This document shows, one piece after another, positions 2-27,200 of a stretch of 64,000 nucleotides of DNA (the stretch's first letter is position 1; the number at the start of each line of letters is the position of its first letter). The DNA is from Verrucomicrobiota bacterium. Its GTDB lineage: Bacteria > Verrucomicrobiota > Verrucomicrobiia > JAWXBN01 > JAWXCD01. Location: positions 2,717 through 66,716 of the forward strand of contig JAWXCD010000003.1 of the NCBI GenBank assembly GCA_034440535.1, in the 5' to 3' direction. The notes below the pieces were generated by a model, which made no database searches, had not been told where the DNA came from, and saw only the letters and a program-made list of their open reading frames with translations. A program made the position numbers and the translations under genes.

Positions 2-1036
2 CTACTGCGAGGAATATGGGAACGTGGGCATCTGACCAACCGGGGCCCACTGGCTTGCGAATTGGAGATGAAGCTGTGCAGGTATTTGGGCTTGCACCAT
101 CTGCTATTTGTTTGCAATGGCACAATCGCTCTTCAGATTGCGATCAAGGCTCTTGACCTGAAGGGAGAGATCATTACGACTCCCTTTTCCTATGTAGCGA
201 CAACATCTTCAATTGTATGGGAGGGATGTACCCCAGTTTTTGTGGATATTGACCCGGAAACACTTTGTATCGATCCGGGTAAGATAGAGACGGCCATCAC
301 AGAGAAGACATCAGCCATTCTCGCGACGCATGTTTATGGAATTCCCTGTGACGTGGAGAGGATTGAAGTCATCGCCCGTAAGCATGGACTAAAGGTGATT
401 TATGATGCAGCTCATTGTTTTGGTGTGAAATACAAAGGGCAAAACCTCCTCAACTATGGAGATATTTCCACCATCAGCTTTCATGCTACAAAATTATTTC
501 ACACTGGTGAGGGCGGCGGGATTATAGCCAAAGAACCGGCCATTCAGGCGAAGATATTCTCGATGCACAATTTCGGGCATAATGGCCCCGAAGAATTTAT
601 TGATGTGGGAGTCAATGGGAAGGCATCCGAATTTCATGCGGCTTTGGGGTTGGCTGTGTTGCCTTACATAGATGAAATTCTTCAGGCACGCCGCAGATTA
701 AGCGAGCTTTACAAGAAACATCTAAATCTCGACAGGCTCAAGCTCCCCCTCATTCCCATCGGGACAGAATACAATTATGCTTATTTTCCAGTGATTTTTC
801 CATCGGAGAAATCAATGCTTGCGGCTCGTGATGCATTGAATCGCAATGGCATCAATCCACGACGGTATTTTTACCCAAGCTTGAACACACTGTGTTATCT
901 AGGAAAAAGCACCATGAAAATCAGTGATGAGATTGTAAAAAAAGTTTTGTGCCTTCCATTATTCCCAGAGTTGACAAAGACTGATGTGCTTTTAATCAGT
1001 CATCTTACTAATCAATCGCTGGATGGAGTTCTGTGA
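2..1036 (+). CDS. DegT/DnrJ/EryC1/StrS-family PLP-dependent sugar aminotransferase; 5' end lies outside the window (partial)
   Basis: The reading frame runs open from nt 2 with no upstream stop (LLRGIWERGHLTNRGPL...). It carries family-typical segments: VYGIPCD, AAHCFG, and a putative PLP-lysine context FHATKLF. It ends in a GTGA overlap with the next gene. Confidence 0.8.
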   Translation, partial: LLRGIWERGHLTNRGPLACELEMKLCRYLGLHHLLFVCNGTIALQIAIKALDLKGEIITTPFSYVATTSSIVWEGCTPVFVDIDPETLCIDPGKIETAITEKTSAILATHVYGIPCDVERIEVIARKHGLKVIYDAAHCFGVKYKGQNLLNYGDISTISFHATKLFHTGEGGGIIAKEPAIQAKIFSMHNFGHNGPEEFIDVGVNGKASEFHAALGLAVLPYIDEILQARRRLSELYKKHLNLDRLKLPLIPIGTEYNYAYFPVIFPSEKSMLAARDALNRNGINPRRYFYPSLNTLCYLGKSTMKISDEIVKKVLCLPLFPELTKTDVLLISHLTNQSLDGVL

Positions 1037-1731
1037 AGATAACCATTATGCAACCTTATTTTTTGCCTTATCTAGGATATTTTCAGCTCATGAATGCTGT
1101 GGACGAGTTTGTGATTTACGACAACATCAAATATACGAAGAAGGGCTGGATCAATCGCAACCGCATGCTGCTGAATGGTGCTGATGAAATGTTCTCGCTG
1201 CCCTTGAAAAAGGACTCGGACTCGCTCGATGTCGTGCAACGTGAACTATCCGCGGACTTCGACCGATCAACGCTGCTTAACCAATTCAAAGGGGCTTACG
1301 GCCGGGCGCCTTATTTCGCACAAACATTCCCGCTACTCGAACGCATTGTGGGGCACGAAGAAGGCAATCTGTTCCGCTATCTCTATCACTCCGTTATAGA
1401 AACCTGCCGACACATAGGCATCGATACGGAAGTACGCATCTCATCCAGTATCGCAATTGATCACGAACTGAAAGCGCAGGACAAGGTGCTCGCGCTGTGC
1501 GGTGCGCTGGGCGCGGATACATATATCAATACCATTGGCGGCACTGGCCTTTATGATAAGGGCGAGTTCGGTGTGCGCGGGATTGACCTTCAATTTATCA
1601 AAGCAAAGCCGTTTGAATATAAGCAATTCGACTCACCTTTCGTGCCCTGGCTCTCTATCGTCGATGTAATGTTTTTTAACCCTATTGAGAAGGTTAAAGA
1701 TCAAATTCGGCGGGGTTATGAATTGATATAA
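1033..1731 (+). CDS. WbqC-family protein (polysaccharide biosynthesis; putative N-acyl/N-formyl amino-sugar modification helper)
   Basis: The N-terminus MKITIMQPYFLPYLGYFQLM is the hallmark start of WbqC-like proteins. The GTG start overlaps the upstream stop (GTGA); an ATG alternative sits at 1048. Confidence 0.8.
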   Translation: MKITIMQPYFLPYLGYFQLMNAVDEFVIYDNIKYTKKGWINRNRMLLNGADEMFSLPLKKDSDSLDVVQRELSADFDRSTLLNQFKGAYGRAPYFAQTFPLLERIVGHEEGNLFRYLYHSVIETCRHIGIDTEVRISSSIAIDHELKAQDKVLALCGALGADTYINTIGGTGLYDKGEFGVRGIDLQFIKAKPFEYKQFDSPFVPWLSIVDVMFFNPIEKVKDQIRRGYELI

Positions 1732-20227: not shown

Positions 20228-20703
20228 TACTAATAAGATCCTCGAAGGCTAGTGTAGTCCATCAAACAGAACGTAACTTATCAAATTTCGCCCAGGCCGC
20301 GTTTTTTTGGTGATGGTCAATTGAAGGTGTAATCTTATGGGTGCACAACCCCTTTGGGATTGTGTGTTTGCTGACTTTTACCCCAGTGGCATCTCGTACC
20401 CGATCGACCCTAGACTGTGTGACGAAATCCCTTTTGGGATTCGCTCTCACGTCCTTTCTTCCTTAGTGGGATCAGTGTCTTTAAACGCATAGTTTGTACG
20501 TCCCTTCGGATACGAAGACACGAAAGGGGAAGCAGGACAAAAAAGGATTTCTTCGTGCCTTCGTGTGAGTCTAATTCTTTCCCTCATTTCCCTTGTAGGT
20601 GCGGGGACACCGGCCGAGTATGCGCCAGCATACGATCGCCTGAGAATAAAAGGCTGAAGGAAAAGCCTAACACAGGAATGAAACCCGTGCTTTTTCACGT
20701 GGA

Positions 20704-20810
20704 AAATGGGTTTCCCTACCCGTTTTCCTCCGTGTTTCCACACACGGGAGTTTAAGGAGTGTATAAGCCTCCTTAAAAAGGCCACGGGTAAGGAGACCCG
20801 TGCTCCACGT
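20704..20810 (-). repeat. ~105-nt structured inverted-repeat element, copy 1 (conserved 5' and 3' arms, variable central hairpin)
   Basis: It aligns to 24160-24261. The 5' arm gggtttccctacccgt pairs with the 3' arm acgggtaaggagaccc. An inner conserved hairpin ccgtgt-ttccac-acacgg is present. The central hairpin is ttaaggag/ctccttaa. The element ends 7 nt before the TAG stop of the 719-aa gene. Confidence 0.6.
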
Positions 20811-20816
20811 CCTGAT

Positions 20817-22976
20817 CTATTTCACCGTCACACGACCGTACTTGGAGGCGTCGAGGTAGGCGGGTTGGCTCTGGAATGTCGAGCCGCGAAGCGAAACGCC
20901 CTTCTCGTCGAATGTGGAGAGCGTGAACTCGATATAAAATTGCTTGGTGAGAGGGTCAATTTTAAGACGTGATAACGGGATCACAGCGAAGAGGCGGTAT
21001 CCGTAAGGTGCGTTTTCGGAGGTAATCTGGATGTCCGCCGCTGAAGTGGGGACATCACCCTCCTTGTAGAGTGCCCGCGCGGTTTGTTTGTCGATACCAG
21101 GAATTAAAAAGGCCTGGCCTGTGGGCTTATCGGGTTTGAGAGCGGTGAATATTTCAAGATCCGATCCTTCCCAGGGGTTTGCGTTCAACTGAGGATTTTT
21201 ATCGTTTACCTTAGCGGCGACAATCAGATGTCCGGCGGCCAATCCAAAACGCACCACACCCAGAACTTCATTCTTGTTGTTATTATAAATGGGGAGCGCA
21301 GGAGAATCTTTAAGGAACTCCTGAACATCTTTCAGTTCAGGAACAGTGGGGACCATGGCAACAGTCACTTTCCGGGAAAGATCGATGTGTCCAAGCACCG
21401 CCTGAGTAGATCCTTCCTTTTTTAACCGGGCCCGCACGGCAAGGCGCGATTCCATCTGCGCCACATCAAACTCATAATTCATTCGTTGGCCCGCGGCCAA
21501 GGTCACCTGCTTTCTGCCCCTCTCGAAGGAAATTCCGGCATCGTGAGGGAGCATATCCAAAACGACTTCATCAGATATCGGTTCCTTCCCTTTGTTTTCG
21601 ATGGTCACTTGAACCCGCCCTTTTTCTCCCATACCTTCAGGTTTGCGCAGCCATGACATCGTCAACGTAGTGGGGGACACCTTCACCGCAACTGCGGGTT
21701 CATTATCGCGAATCATCGTTTTTCCACCGCTGCCGTCACGAATACGAACGCCTTGCTTCCCGTTGTTATCACTCAAGATCGCATGCACAACGCCGGGAAG
21801 CACATCGATGGAAGGTTCGGTCGTATGGAAAGTACACCCCCGCACCTGCAATCGACCCGCCGAGGCTTCCACAAGCGCGCGCCCGGAATGTTCTCCGCGC
21901 GAACTCGAAAAATAACAGTTCTCCAGGGACACATACCCTTCGGGAGCGCTCGACACGACACATTGTTCTGACGGACCCCAGAATGCACAATTAGAAAAGC
22001 GCACTGAACCGGCGCAATTCGGTCCAATCAAAACCTGAATCGGGTCGGGGCCGCTCATGGAAACGAACTCGCCATTAGATATCAAAAGGCCCATCGGTTG
22101 AATATCTTCAACCACAATTGCGTTCCATGTCGCATCGGCACCGATTCCAGAAAACTGGCCGTTACAAGCCCCGTTTGCGGTTTTTACAAATTTATATCCG
22201 ACACGCGCCGGGAACACGAAGGTGTTGTGAACGTAAGCCCAATCAATTCGCCCGAAAGTAAAGGCCTCAAAGTTTTTCGACATGTAATCGAACACCAAAT
22301 CCCAATCTCCACCGACCCCCGAATGAAACCATTCACAATGGAAATGCACGTTATCGAGGCGCCCGATGTCCACGCAGTTGTCCACATAAAATCCACGGCG
22401 CAATGCGCATCCGTACACATTGCGAACCTGAAACCGTATATTAACTTCCGGACCCACGCGGATTGCATTGTAACTGTTGAAGAGGGTGATGTCTTCGAGC
22501 CGGTTATCACGTCCCTGCAGATGAAAGGTCCAAGGATAAGGTTGAATATCTTTAGCGACCTGATCGGGATAAAGAACGGACAGACCAATAACCGCCGCGT
22601 TGTTCCCGAGTTCGAAAAGGGCGGGACCGTCCTCGCGGCCGCGTCCCGCGGTGGACATGACGATGGTTCCCACTTGCGGATCTGAAAAGTGATTAGCCTC
22701 GTTAACCCCCACCAGAGCGACACCTTCAGGAATTCGCAAACTTCCTGAGACCAGAATTTTACCAACGGGTAACTGCACACGCCCGCCTCCCTTTTTCCGG
22801 ACCTCGTCCATGGCCTGTTGAATGGTTTGAGTGTTATCAGTTTTCCCATCAGCAACAATCGACGCGGCTTTCGAAAGACCACAGGCCCTGAACTTGAAAC
22901 AAGGCTTACAAAATATCCAGCAGGCAGCGGCCAGGACAACAATGACGAGTAAGATGGCGATGAGTTTTACTTTCAT
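20817..22976 (-). CDS. secreted right-handed parallel beta-helix protein (pectate-lyase-superfamily-like N-domain) with CBM9/DOMON-like C-terminal domain
   Basis: Signal/anchor MKVKLIAILLVIVVLAAA. The segment ADGKTDNTQTIQQAMDEV...GGGRVQLP is typical of the Pectate_lyase_3-type N-terminus. The C-terminal ~190 aa are CBM9-like. ATG verified. Confidence 0.65.
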   Translation of the reverse strand: MKVKLIAILLVIVVLAAACWIFCKPCFKFRACGLSKAASIVADGKTDNTQTIQQAMDEVRKKGGGRVQLPVGKILVSGSLRIPEGVALVGVNEANHFSDPQVGTIVMSTAGRGREDGPALFELGNNAAVIGLSVLYPDQVAKDIQPYPWTFHLQGRDNRLEDITLFNSYNAIRVGPEVNIRFQVRNVYGCALRRGFYVDNCVDIGRLDNVHFHCEWFHSGVGGDWDLVFDYMSKNFEAFTFGRIDWAYVHNTFVFPARVGYKFVKTANGACNGQFSGIGADATWNAIVVEDIQPMGLLISNGEFVSMSGPDPIQVLIGPNCAGSVRFSNCAFWGPSEQCVVSSAPEGYVSLENCYFSSSRGEHSGRALVEASAGRLQVRGCTFHTTEPSIDVLPGVVHAILSDNNGKQGVRIRDGSGGKTMIRDNEPAVAVKVSPTTLTMSWLRKPEGMGEKGRVQVTIENKGKEPISDEVVLDMLPHDAGISFERGRKQVTLAAGQRMNYEFDVAQMESRLAVRARLKKEGSTQAVLGHIDLSRKVTVAMVPTVPELKDVQEFLKDSPALPIYNNNKNEVLGVVRFGLAAGHLIVAAKVNDKNPQLNANPWEGSDLEIFTALKPDKPTGQAFLIPGIDKQTARALYKEGDVPTSAADIQITSENAPYGYRLFAVIPLSRLKIDPLTKQFYIEFTLSTFDEKGVSLRGSTFQSQPAYLDASKYGRVTVK

Positions 22977-22988
22977 AATTTTGCTTTT

Positions 22989-23359
22989 TTAAGATCTTTT
23001 TTCTTTGCTGTACCTTGGACATTTTTCACGGCTGGGCGCTTTTGCCCCGGTAACGTCTACCCCAAAATTCGAACCAATGGAAATCCCTGAATAAGGAACG
23101 TGATGAATGTGGTTTCGAGCCACGATGGTTTCGCGGGCCAGGGACACGAAAATGGGAACCACCCCGTAACTGCTCCAACCCATGTTATAAATATGGTTAT
23201 CTGAAATAACCGTACCTGTCGGTAAAACTGACGGATCTGAAGCTGTCGTCGCGTTCCCCCAACAAAAACCCCGCCGCGTGTCGATACATGAATTTCCGAT
23301 TCGGTAATCAGGTTAGAAAGCAGAAACACAACGAGTCCCGCGCGAATGATGATAATCAT
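22989..23359 (-). pseudogene. possible frameshifted remnant of a small secreted beta-helix-repeat protein
   Basis: Two overlapping minus-strand ORFs in different frames. 23057-23359 begins with a signal-peptide-like MIIIIRAGLVVFLLSNLI. 22989-23183 contains beta-helix-like ARNHIHHVPYSGISIGSNFGVDVTG. They could be joined by a single frameshift. Confidence 0.2.
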
Positions 23360-23446
23360 TTAACTTGCGCGAAACCATACCGAATCATATTCCCTTTTCA
23401 AGTCCAAAGTCTCCTGGGTCGATATGAGTACTCCGCAACCTCGTTA

Positions 23447-23680
23447 CTTGGTCATATCATTAAAACGAAGTCGAAACTCCCTCGGGGTCATTCGTTTCTT
23501 TTTGGAAAAGAGGCGGTTGAAATTTGAGAGGTTTGAAAAACCACAGAAAAAGGCGATCAAAGTAATCGAGCGCGACGACTCCAGAAGCTGCTGACAGACG
23601 TGGTTTAATTTTAAATCGATGACAAAATCGGTAAAGATCGTTTTGGAATGACGTTTAAAATACGTTTCCGTCCTCCTCTT
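23447..23680 (-). pseudogene. AraC/XylS-family transcriptional regulator remnant (C-terminal HTH only, no start codon)
   Basis: The minus-strand frame between two in-frame stops translates to KRRTETYFKRHSKTIFTDFVIDLKLNHVCQQLLESSRSITLIAFFCGFSNLSNFNRLFSKKKRMTPREFRLRFNDMTK. This is a textbook AraC second-HTH signature (IA..CGFS..S.F.R.FK...G.TP.EFR). There is no Met or alternative start and no N-terminal domain. Confidence 0.55.
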
Positions 23681-24159
23681 TTACCTTTCTTAAATGGAAA
23701 CACTTTCTCACAAACAAACCGTCATTCAACCCTCGGCCTCGGAAATTCTTTCTTTTCGCAATAATGGCCACGTCAAAATCAAAAATGTTTTTTCAAAAGA
23801 CGAGATTCAGGGGTGGGAACCTAAGATAACACGTGCCTATTGGAACCTGCCAACAAGGACCAGCAAAACGATCTCAAGTCGTGGATGCCAGGGGCTACCG
23901 TCAGAAAACCCGGGCCCTGTTGCTCTTCCCCGGTTTTATATTGAAACTAAACAGCCCCTGTTACCCCGAAAAAACCTGTCACGTAACAACCGGGGGCCTT
24001 TATGTGGCCCTTCAGAATGATGGCCAACAACCCGCCATAGTCGCCTTGACCCTCCACAGCCAAACCTTCACCGGCGAAGTTCCGCAGCAGTCAACACGCG
24101 CCTGGTGGTTCGACCCGGAATCCAATAAAACCGAGACTTTGGTTTTTTAAAACCTAGAA

Positions 24160-24261
24160 CATGGGTCTCCCTACCCGTGTTCCTCCGTGTTTCCACACAC
24201 GGCTATCCACGGGGGGTAAGCCCCCCTCAAAGCACACGGGTAAGGAGACCCGTGCTCCACG
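24160..24261 (-). repeat. ~105-nt structured inverted-repeat element, copy 2
   Basis: It has the same arms as copy 1 and the same inner hairpin. The central hairpin has a different sequence but an equivalent structure (ggggggtaagcccccc). The 3' boundary lies 1 nt from the TAA stop of the giant gene. Confidence 0.6.
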
Positions 24262-27200
24262 TTAAGTCGTTTTGCGTGTGCGGGATTTCATCCAGGCGAG
24301 TGCAGGTTTGCGACCATAGAAGGCAAGAACGATTAAAGTGAGGATGATAACCATCCACTCTTCGGGTTCAGGTGTTTCATAACCCGGTGTCGCGTAAGCA
24401 TAACCGGTGTTACCAAGGCTATTATTGGCAATTCCAGTGATGTAATCGGATGTAGAATTGTTATATCCAACCCGTGTAGCGACTAGGTTGCCAGAAAGAT
24501 CCGCGCCCAAACCGGTGTTCAGTGCTGAGTACTGTAAATTGACGACTCCGCTGGAAGGATCCCAGAAGTTTTGGAAATTGGCTTGCCAACCCGCGCCACC
24601 GCCAAAGTCGAGGGCAAACTGGCTAGTCCCTCCAATCATGGTCAGATCGTAATTAGCCCCGTCATTGTTGTATGTGAATACATCGACCACAGCCCCTAAG
24701 TTATCGTAAAGAACCATATAATCCGCGTTGCTGTCCGGGTTGCCCATAAACCCATAAGCGTCCGTCCAGTTATTGAAATAACTATCAGTTAAGTAACCCG
24801 AATCGGCATTAGCGACGATCAGAGTACCGCCCTGACCGCTGACAAGATTTGTATAAGGATCGCCGGACTGAGTCCAGCTACTTCCAGTTTGTGTGGTGTA
24901 TGTCACGCTTGGGCGGAAAGGACGTCCACCTTGAACACCTCCGTTATGTTCGTCAGCACCGAAAGTAAACGAGTCAGAAGGGGCACCTACCATACCCATA
25001 ACCAAGAATTCGTTGTTTGTGCCTCCTAAGTTACCAGCGCCGGAGATACTAAAGTTGGCTGCAAGATAACCGTTCTGATCGTATGCACGAACTTTATATC
25101 CAGAAAGATCCAAGCCTCCTCCACTGCCCAAAGTCTGGGAATGGGCGAGGTTCGTTCCAAGTTTGAGTTCGAGCCATTCATGATTCTTGTCAACTGCGTT
25201 TGCTCCCGCATTGACCATAAATTCGTTGAAGTAAACAGACCCGCGATTTGCTGAGGCTGTTCCCGAACCAATCCCGGTCCCTGGCTGAACCTGTTTACGC
25301 ATATCGTTAGTGACTACCGCGCCCGTTACGTTTTCCACAAAACCTTGGTTAACCGACAATGCCATTGCAGCACTCGCAGCGCCTTGGGCGGAATAGAATC
25401 GGCCACCTTCGCGCACATCATTTAAGCCTGTACCGTTAGTGCCAGTACCGGTCGAAGTAAGGTTGTTAATTGTGTTTACGTTAGCGATTGTTCCGCCATC
25501 AGCCAAAACGTTAGCCGCCACGTTATCGGTCTTTAATCGCCCATTCAACACTGACACTGTCGAATAAAGGGCGTTCGTAAGAACCGCTGTGTAGCCTTGA
25601 CCTGAGCCGACATTTGTCACAATAAAGACCTCCGAGTGGCCCAAAGTACCCTTGAAGGTGGAAGCTGAATCCAATACAGGACTATCCGTGACTTGAACTT
25701 GAAGGTTCACAGATCCTGAAACCTGATTTGTCGTTACAGCCCAGTATGATCCGTCCGCTGCGATGACTTGTAAGTTAGCACCGCCCAAATTGGTTACGTT
25801 CCCGAACATCCCAGTTTGTTTAGTGACGTCGAAACCATTAATAAGCCGGTAGGTGTTTGTATCGGTTGTCGGTGTGGTATTGAGATAAAGTGCTCCACCG
25901 AAGACCAAGTTACCACTCGAACCCGCACTCGAAATAACGTCACGCACGTTTGTGGTAGCGCCGATGTTGAAGTAATTTGTTGAGCCCGCAAGACTCACGT
26001 AGTTAAACCCGCTCCCTACTGTCAGTGTCCCAGTATTCGTTGTTGTCCCTGCGCTGACAGTACCTGCGTTTGTTAAGTGTCCAAAGATAGTTGAACTGGT
26101 ACCGATCAGCAGACCGTTACTCTGGACGTTAAGACCATCGGAGAATCTGGCATTAACCGATTGAAGATTCAAGGTGCCCCCATTTGATAATACCACTTGG
26201 CTGCCATTTGTGAAAGTAACGCCACCAGCCCCGGTTAAAGTGAGTTGTTTATTCGATACGTTCACTGTGCCCGCGAGAACAAGCGTGCTCCCAGCAGCAT
26301 CCCAGGTCTGGGACGCGCCAACAGTCACTCTATTACTAATGAATTGGGCGACGCTGCTATTCTGGTATATCCCCACTCCATTTGTCCCCATGATAGTCAA
26401 GTTGCTGCCACCGATTGCATGGGTGCTCATTCCGGCAAGGTTACTAAAGGTCATCTGCGAAATTGAATAAGGAGTATCAATAATCGAATTTGTCTTCGTG
26501 CTATTAGCCGCAATGATAATACTTGCTGTTCCATCATTCACTGGAGCCGCGTCAAACACCCAGTTAACCCCTGTTGACCAGTTGCTGTTTCCCGTTCCAT
26601 TATTTCCATCCCAAATATAGGGCGCTTGTGAGAATACAAGATTGGTCAACCACACATCGTTTGCAATATTCAGGATCTGACCACCAAAAACGTTAGCCCC
26701 TTGGAAAACAAATCCGCTAAAGTCGTTTGAACTTCCAGCCCACGTAGTGTTATCAAATAAACGGAATCCAGCGGTGGCGAGCGGGGAATAATTAAATGTG
26801 AAATCAAGGACACCTCCGCCAAAGAAGGTTCCATTTACCGCGACGTTATCAAAGGACGCTGCACTGTTGAAATTAAAGAAGTTGGTAGAAGTCGCACCCA
26901 AAATCATGTTGCCATTGATCGTGAGCGTTCCCACATCAGCGCCCGATGAAGTGCCAAGATTCATGTTACCACGATTTGTCACATTACCCGCGATGGTTGC
27001 ACCAGCCGCGTAAATGCTCGCGTTTGTATTGACGAGCAATCCCCCGGTAAAGGTATGAGCGGCTGTCGTATCCACATAAAGGCGGGCATTTTGTGTCCCA
27101 CTACCCACCGTAAATGTGCTGCCCGTATAATTCATCCCACCGCCACCAATGATCAAGGTGCCGTCTTGGTGGCTAATCGAGTTATTCGCTTTGACCACGA

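Follow-up and report, generated by a model that had tools for sequence, protein, structure and literature searches.

Stop-codon-abutting structured repeats in a Verrucomicrobiota genome are very probably inverted REP dimers of a GTGG-tagged lineage

A highly structured element that lies directly behind the stop codons of two minus-strand genes, in the same orientation each time, raises the question of whether it is a regulatory RNA dedicated to the messages that carry it or a repeat of a known kind for which such a position is ordinary. The element occurs twice in a 64-kb stretch of a Verrucomicrobiota metagenome-assembled genome (MAG) (herein referred to as the window, i.e. the whole stretch of DNA that was analysed), and a preliminary description of the locus had argued for the former from the precision of the placement. 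Here, we conclude that the element is very probably an inverted-REP dimer, a non-autonomous selfish repeat of the BIME/REPIN type that belongs to a GTGG-tagged Opitutae lineage and has generic REP effects. The assignment to the Opitutae lineage is supported by the Verrucomicrobiota MAG that hosts the element (MDZ4814698.1) and by the sole genome match to its arm, which lies in an Opitutae MAG.

The positions given in the preliminary description are borne out by the sequence and by alignment of the two copies (table 1). In copy 2, the block held in common with copy 1 runs to position 24261 and borders the stop codon of the 7598-aa gene; the last A of this TAA itself belongs to an ACGTGG block common to both copies, and the mRNA strand reads TAA-C-GTGG-AG-CACGGGTCTCCTTACCCGTG, such that the GTGG tag begins 1 nt past the stop. 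For copy 1, the shared block stops 7 nt short of the 719-aa gene's TAG, with the GTGG tag beginning 8 nt past that codon. Both elements are read on the minus strand, share their orientation relative to their own gene (n = 2) and stand at the start of the 3' UTR. The first 28 nt (ACGTGGAGCACGGGTCTCCTTACCCGTG) are identical between the copies in the alignment, and a 17-mer taken from the arm has four matches in the window at three or fewer mismatches against 0.09 expected. When each element is placed uniformly inside its own intergenic space (589 nt and 1285 nt), coordinate arithmetic gives a chance of ~3e-4 that both fall 8 nt or less from a stop codon. The contention that a random insertion would not land in this way hence holds insofar as the placement is non-random; however, the non-randomness is of a kind typical for REPs. 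Two assemblies of the same organism (L123 and L124) show an arrangement identical to the window with no polymorphism, and a search for orthologues of the 719-aa gene for an empty-site comparison gave a nearest relative that is 59% identical over about half the length, a match that permits no synteny comparison.

The anatomy of the element identifies the class of repeat to which it belongs. In each arm, which is a REP unit, a 2-nt linker joins the GTGG tag to a 7-bp palindrome with a 6-nt loop, and the unit of the window's family can be written in model form as GTGG-NN-CAYGGGTYTCCYTACCCGTK. Two such tagged palindromes stand in inverted orientation, their GTGG tags at the outer ends and a spacer of 55-58 nt between them, and the element is therefore a tail-to-tail REP dimer (BIME/REPIN-like). 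The stop-proximal unit of copy 2 is made up of GTGG (24260-24257), an AG linker and the palindrome CACGGGT-CTCCTT-ACCCGTG (24254-24235), the 20-mer being identical to one arm at the Opitutae MAG locus L001. Three of the four window arms carry GTGG (linker AG or AA) and the fourth carries CTAG. A degenerate third REP head follows immediately after copy 1, making copy 1 a small BIME-like cluster; in total, the 64 kb of the window contain two dimers and one remnant, and a search of the window with the family arm profile recovered just the four known arms (E = 2.6e-4, 2.6e-4, 4.3e-3 and 1.2).

The spacer of copy 2 contains two small hairpins. One of these, CCGUGU-GUGGAA-ACACGG, is the same in copy 1, the hairpin CCGUGUGUGGAAACACGG being invariant between the copies; the other is GGGGGG-CUUA-CCCCCC in copy 2 and has another sequence in copy 1 (GGGGGGCUUACCCCCC versus AAGGAG...CUCCUU), yet is a hairpin in both. 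The mRNA strand folds at -72.8 kcal/mol in copy 2 (z = -9.1) and at -60 kcal/mol in copy 1 (z = -6.3) relative to shuffled sequences, and the opposite strand also folds stably (z = -6.8 in copy 2 and -7.5 in copy 1).

Table 1. Coordinates of the repeats, their units and the genes that they adjoin (window positions unless a locus is named)
Feature	Position	Strand	Basis or remark
Giant gene ORF, 7598 aa	24262..47058	-	ORF list; ends at same base in gene calls of an independent assembly
TAA stop of 7598-aa gene	24262..24264	-	Sequence; stop agrees with other assembly
719-aa beta-helix gene ORF	20817..22976	-	ORF list; stop base matches independent assembly
TAG stop of 719-aa gene	20817..20819	-	Sequence, ORF list and other assembly
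Copy 2, complete REP dimer: REP, 55-nt spacer, inverted REP	24152..24261	-	Repeat search, alignment, folding
Copy 2 stop-proximal REP unit	24235..24260	-	Family arm profile, nhmmer E = 2.6e-4
Copy 2 spacer with two small hairpins	24180..24234	-	Alignment, folding
Copy 2 distal inverted REP unit CATGGGTCTCCCTACCCGTG, tag degenerated to CTAG	24152..24179	+	Arm search, 1 mismatch; profile E = 0.0043
Copy 1, complete REP dimer, 58-nt spacer	20697..20809	-	Repeat search, alignment, folding
Copy 1 stop-proximal REP unit GTGG-AG-CACGGGTCTCCTTACCCGTG, then GCCUUUUUAA	20783..20808	-	Sequence, terminator scan, profile
Degenerate third REP head GTGAAAAAGCACGGGTTTCATTCC	20677..20698	-	Repeat search and sequence reading
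L081 RAYT gene	762-1493	-	Y1_Tnp and NF047646 above cut-offs
In-frame REP dimers	L007 7488-7544; L114 1731-1789; L089 7527-7615; L076 2037-2097		Also L024, L037, L060, L084, L040

Relatives of the element come from one sequenced genome and from metagenomes. A scan of species-representative genomes with the 20-mer arm (a set to which the window's own genome does not belong) returned one match, at locus L001 of the Opitutae MAG, where two dimers stand in tandem upstream of tgt. A metagenome scan with the arm returned at least 119 stretches that carry it, mostly in the form of short hairpin dimers, and a single contig among the matches listed has up to three sites. Together with L001, the listed matches comprise at least 94 inverted dimers and at least 53 single units. 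The loops of the dimers among the matches listed are mostly 9-11 nt long with a tail to 83 nt (range 4-83 nt), which places the 55-58-nt spacer of the window copies inside the range of the family.

The family logo, drawn from 174 half-sites among the matches listed, is GTGG-CACGGGTC-TCCC-GACCCGTG. GTGG is present at 96-98% of these half-sites, although its last G is the first base of the search pattern and only GTG is independent of the search, and conservation drops sharply just outside the tag. Since the relatives were retrieved with the window's own arm, their similarity to it is partly by construction; the GTG of the tag, the dimer layout and the link to a RAYT gene are independent of this mode of retrieval. 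The window copies depart from the family consensus in having TT for CG in the palindrome loop, a 2-nt linker and a long spacer, and the window has a GC content of 48% versus ~65% for the family. Positions flanking the half-sites are weakly biased, and both a target-site duplication and a stop codon fixed within the element termini were considered and rejected, TGA occurring at -4 or -3 in 19 of the 174 half-sites among the matches listed. Two arm matches in viral contigs lie inside coding sequence without a second arm and were discarded as chance, and an alignment-query search for further copies of a small ORF encoded by the element (MGLPTR...) gave no candidates.

Many dimers are embedded in other repeats (at L022, L027, L047, L054, L069, L088, L100, L122 and others, and at L015, L030, L038, L099 and others), the nesting families being GCCGCAACCnAnGTGGCAC (at least nine loci) and GCCTGCnnGCAGGCGA (at least 13 loci), such that composite mosaic repeats result. 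At L103 (10058-10162), the 57-nt spacer of a dimer includes GGTTCGAGTCC, a tRNA T-arm-like sequence.

The family is associated with a transposase of the expected kind. An approximate E. coli RayT sequence, used in tblastn as a probe only, pointed to ORFs in L012, L081 and L001. The L081 ORF scores 32 bits against Pfam Y1_Tnp (cut-off 23) and 83.4 bits against NCBIfam NF047646, "REP-associated tyrosine transposase" (cut-off 80), and the L012 ORF scores 24.6 and 89.5 bits against the same models and cut-offs. Family dimers at 706-779 and 1419-1514 of L081 overlap both ends of the RAYT gene, and L081 706-1514 is a complete REPtron, in which a RAYT gene is flanked by dimers of the family. A 355-aa ORF in L001 (5853-6930) has a Y1-transposase-like N-terminus, scores 64 bits against NF047646 (below the cut-off of 80) and is bordered by perfect-looking 25-nt inverted repeats (GGGGTCATGGCAGGATTCGGGATAT), an arrangement that resembles the "TIRtron" layout of Di Nocera et al. 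(2013; PMC3733652). Searches of the 64-kb window revealed no RAYT gene; the flanking of such a gene by REP units is a feature of the family, as seen at L081, and not of the window.

The genomic contexts of the relatives, counted with a crude GC3-based gene caller, indicate where these repeats are tolerated. Intergenic dimers with two called neighbours occupy 9 convergent, 26 tandem and 6 divergent regions among the matches listed. Within the tandem regions they are closer to the stop codon in 18 cases and to the start codon in 7 (binomial P = 0.04, among the matches listed). Of 54 distances to a stop codon among the matches listed, 14 are 10 nt or less, and a null of uniform placement within each intergenic space gives 6.5 elements expected against 10 observed with a stop codon this near (P ~0.05, again among the matches listed). 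The preference of the family for the stop side is modest, and much of the apparent abutting in relatives follows from an element of ~60 nt filling a short intergenic spacer. The proposition that other copies would show no positional preference, raised in the preliminary description as a reason for abandoning a dedicated function, is therefore half right: every kind of context is occupied, but the modest bias in the tandem regions is present.

About a dozen copies among the matches listed lie in frame inside real genes (table 1), to which they contribute ~20 residues (e.g. VARVSRPV...TGQETRAT). Pfam domains are found on both sides of the insert in a UvrA-like ORF and a RecD2 helicase; a class I/II aminotransferase with an insert has two matched stretches, and a DUF255 protein is matched on one side only. 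A WD40-like protein and a recurrent membrane protein are also among the hosts.

These features closely match repeats that have been described previously. A REP is an imperfect palindrome of 20-50 nt that can fold into a stem-loop, bears a conserved tetranucleotide tag (GTAG or a variant) at one end and is dispersed in many, mostly intergenic copies. REP and BIME elements are classically described as such tagged palindromes arranged as inverted pairs or small clusters (PMC8266576), and the same source, which also defines the REPtron, describes Marinomonas REPs that have a 2-nt linker. Opitutus terrae, in particular, is rich in GTAG-type REPs in which the tag is mutated to GTGG, and in the genomes surveyed REP dimers are common and their spacers variable (Di Nocera et al. 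2013; PMC3733652). REPs in that survey lie mainly between convergent and unidirectional ORFs near ORF 3' ends, the convergent REPs of P. entomophila and S. wittichii being mostly less than 20 bp from both ORF ends; near-stop placement is stated to hold in other REP-rich genomes, and the stop codon is often supplied by the REP termini. Likewise, PMC12306157, citing Liang et al. 2015, places many E. coli REPs 1-20 nt past the stop codon. Given that REP families typically sit just downstream of genes, the placement of the window copies is ordinary and is not a special signal of secreted-protein mRNAs. Placement against the stop codon, which the preliminary description took as an argument for a dedicated function, is thus a published property of REP families (PMC3733652; PMC12306157) and does not serve that argument.

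The likeness to O. terrae extends to several features. Both repeats have a verrucomicrobial host, a GTGG tag and short palindromes of 7-8 bp, and both often form inverted dimers with variable spacers (PMC3733652). Intragenic GTAG REPs are most numerous in O. terrae, where both uvrA genes and the exodeoxyribonuclease V alpha gene are among the hosts, and in-frame copies inside uvrA and recD-type genes recur here in the metagenome relatives. The O. terrae peptides GTGVPPV and HGRHARAT (PMC3733652, supplement) imply the unit GTGGCACGGGCGTGCCGCCCGTG, which shares GTGGCACGGG...CCCGTG with the window unit; compared through these peptides, the O. terrae unit is the apparent sister of the window unit. 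The inner stem and loop differ, being TCTCCCGA or TCTCCTTA in the window's family, and, unlike the O. terrae REPs, the window copies have a 2-nt linker and a structured spacer of 55-58 nt and reside in a genome of 48% GC.

Other repeat classes offer parallels of organization but differ in sequence. E. coli REP/BIME elements share the tagged imperfect palindrome, the pairing of REP and inverted REP with a linker and the location in 3' UTRs, but are dissimilar in sequence; their stem is bulged, their tag is GTAG, and their effects are extended to the window by analogy. Pseudomonas REPINs, according to Bertels and Rainey 2011 (PMC3116915), are two inverted REPs that form one hairpin of ~100 nt, with conserved arms, a variable middle and a single-copy Y1 transposase flanked by repeats, all of which recall the present family. 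They differ from it in sequence and in phylum, mobilisation of the present family is putative, and many of the relatives among the matches listed sit within coding sequence, a position uncommon for Pseudomonas REPINs. In this last respect, the metagenomic relatives resemble Rickettsia palindromic elements (RPE) in residing in frame in conserved genes and adding ~20 residues; by contrast, the window copies are extragenic and RPEs are longer and unrelated in sequence.

We hypothesize that a RAYT encoded in the genome of the window copies the hairpin units as single-stranded DNA and that the copies survive where they are least harmful, mainly a few bases past a stop codon. In the transcripts, both window copies probably open the 3' UTR, where each would fold into a very stable stem of ~110 nt with two inner hairpins. 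By analogy with E. coli, such a stem would hinder exonucleases that work in the 3'-to-5' direction and thereby stabilise the message upstream, REPs being credited with the stabilisation of upstream mRNA against 3' exonucleases in PMC12306157, which cites Newbury 1987. It may in addition delay the ribosome at termination and so reduce the amount of protein made: REPs 15 nt or less from the stop codon stall ribosomes and lower translation, as PMC12306157 relates from Liang 2015, and the stem of the window copies begins within this distance. These effects on the mRNA, judged by the same analogy, are probably generic by-products of a selfish repeat and not a signal of secreted-protein mRNAs. The view that the element has a function tied to its transcripts accordingly survives in part, stabilisation of the mRNA 3' end being a plausible and classical REP effect, but not as a mark of secreted messages.

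Among the alternatives, the reading that fares best, improbable as we consider it, is that the element is the intrinsic (Rho-independent) terminator of both genes. A GC-rich hairpin does lie immediately past each stop, the first REP hairpin of copy 1 is followed by GCCUUUUUAA in a terminator-like manner, and a role in transcription termination has been reported for E. coli REPs (as cited in PMC3733652). However, the full structure is without a U-tract in both copies, the inner hairpin of copy 2 has just UGCUUUG after it, and the region holds 7 terminator-like sites against a shuffled expectation of 6.2; moreover, the in-frame relatives inside essential genes would be lethal there if they terminated transcription. 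The remark in the preliminary description that neither copy is followed by an obvious U-tract is accordingly true of the whole element but overlooks the sequence behind the first inner hairpin of copy 1, and this first unit with its GCCUUUUUAA could, from its sequence, also terminate some transcripts.

It is likewise improbable, in our estimation, that the window copies are a domesticated form of the REP dimer. In such a form, the long spacer and its invariant CCGUGUGUGGAAACACGG hairpin would make a three-way junction where the 3' UTR begins, and selection would maintain this junction either because it tunes how very long messages or those of secreted proteins are terminated or stabilised, or because it binds a protein. 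The invariance of CCGUGUGUGGAAACACGG in both copies could mean a constraint beyond selfish spread, and this hairpin has no match outside the two window copies in the scans made, including that of viral contigs.

The reading favoured by the preliminary description, namely a dedicated 3'-UTR RNA element for exported or PEP-CTERM mRNAs that would serve localisation, regulation or the stabilisation of very long messages, we also consider improbable. Its premise is reasonable, since both copies lie in the same orientation directly past the stops of two gene products that are plausibly secreted, as predicted from their sequences: the 7598-aa protein has T5SS/PEP-CTERM-associated repeats (TIGR04393, above cut-off) and a PEP-CTERM-like C-terminal tail (PEPEEW, a hydrophobic stretch and basic residues; sub-threshold score), and the 719-aa protein combines a hydrophobic segment at its N-terminus with weak matches to pectate lyase and CBM9. 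With n = 2, however, a shared orientation arises by chance half of the time. The mRNA strand of copy 2 is 14 kcal/mol more stable than the opposite strand, and one spacer hairpin is identical in the two copies while the other, changed in sequence, remains a hairpin; against this, copy 1 folds equally well on both strands, and among the matches listed the sense strand is more stable in 15 and less stable in 30 of 46 oriented relatives. Strand asymmetry was hence rejected as a sign of RNA-level function, the family showing no sign of selection on RNA. The relatives are also in the wrong places for such a role, as they flank or interrupt housekeeping genes and occupy divergent regions; among the matches listed, they adjoin or interrupt tgt, uvrA, recD2, aminotransferase and other genes and also lie upstream of genes. 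Specificity for secreted or PEP-CTERM transcripts is therefore not upheld, and the relatives listed show no enrichment near genes for such proteins, a pattern that the preliminary description had itself named as contrary to its proposal. In addition, the arms are predicted transposase substrates, and neither an Rfam gathering-score scan of the window and 10 related loci nor an Rfam E-value scan of 20400-24400 produced a match to the element.

We give next to no credence to a MITE, that is, an internally deleted IS moved by a DDE transposase instead of a RAYT, for although terminal inverted repeats of ~27-30 nt around a non-coding core of ~55 nt and a total length of ~110 nt would suit one, no target-site duplication lies beside copy 1 or copy 2, each "terminal inverted repeat" is itself a tagged palindrome that is also found singly (at least 53 singles), the same units border a Y1 transposase gene, and the spacer of the family varies from 4 to 83 nt among the matches listed.

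The inverted-REP dimer reading has practical consequences for annotation. A structure that abuts a stop codon in this manner is to be annotated as a REP/BIME-type repeat and not as a new regulatory RNA. The GTGG-tagged lineage known from O. terrae is extended to a Verrucomicrobiota MAG of 48% GC and to many environmental contigs, and is linked to a RAYT gene flanked by its repeats (L081). The locus also provides a natural test case, in which a very stable REP hairpin 1 nt past a stop codon may influence how a 22.8-kb message is terminated or how stable it is.

Several features of the surrounding sequence are recorded here in their own right. The ~1.2 kb between the two genes (22977-24150) is without a supported gene and looks like decayed genes, with an AraC-type C-terminal fragment on the minus strand at 23444-23560. 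A plus-strand ORF of 105 aa (23833-24150), which ends 1 nt before copy 2, was considered as a convergent gene and rejected, having no Pfam match and no convincing homologues. The 589-nt convergent spacer upstream of copy 1 contains (20340-20560) the sequence CCCCTTTGGGATT twice, 80 nt apart, and the region also has a 15-nt inverted pair at 20421/20540 and a weak, sub-threshold CRISPR-DR25 match at 20426-20442. Lastly, the second assembly of the same organism, L124, matches the window at 99.94% except over its positions 1-671. This segment contains an AdoMet decarboxylase gene and meets the remainder within the giant gene; the join is probably an assembly chimera due to the internal repeats of the giant gene.
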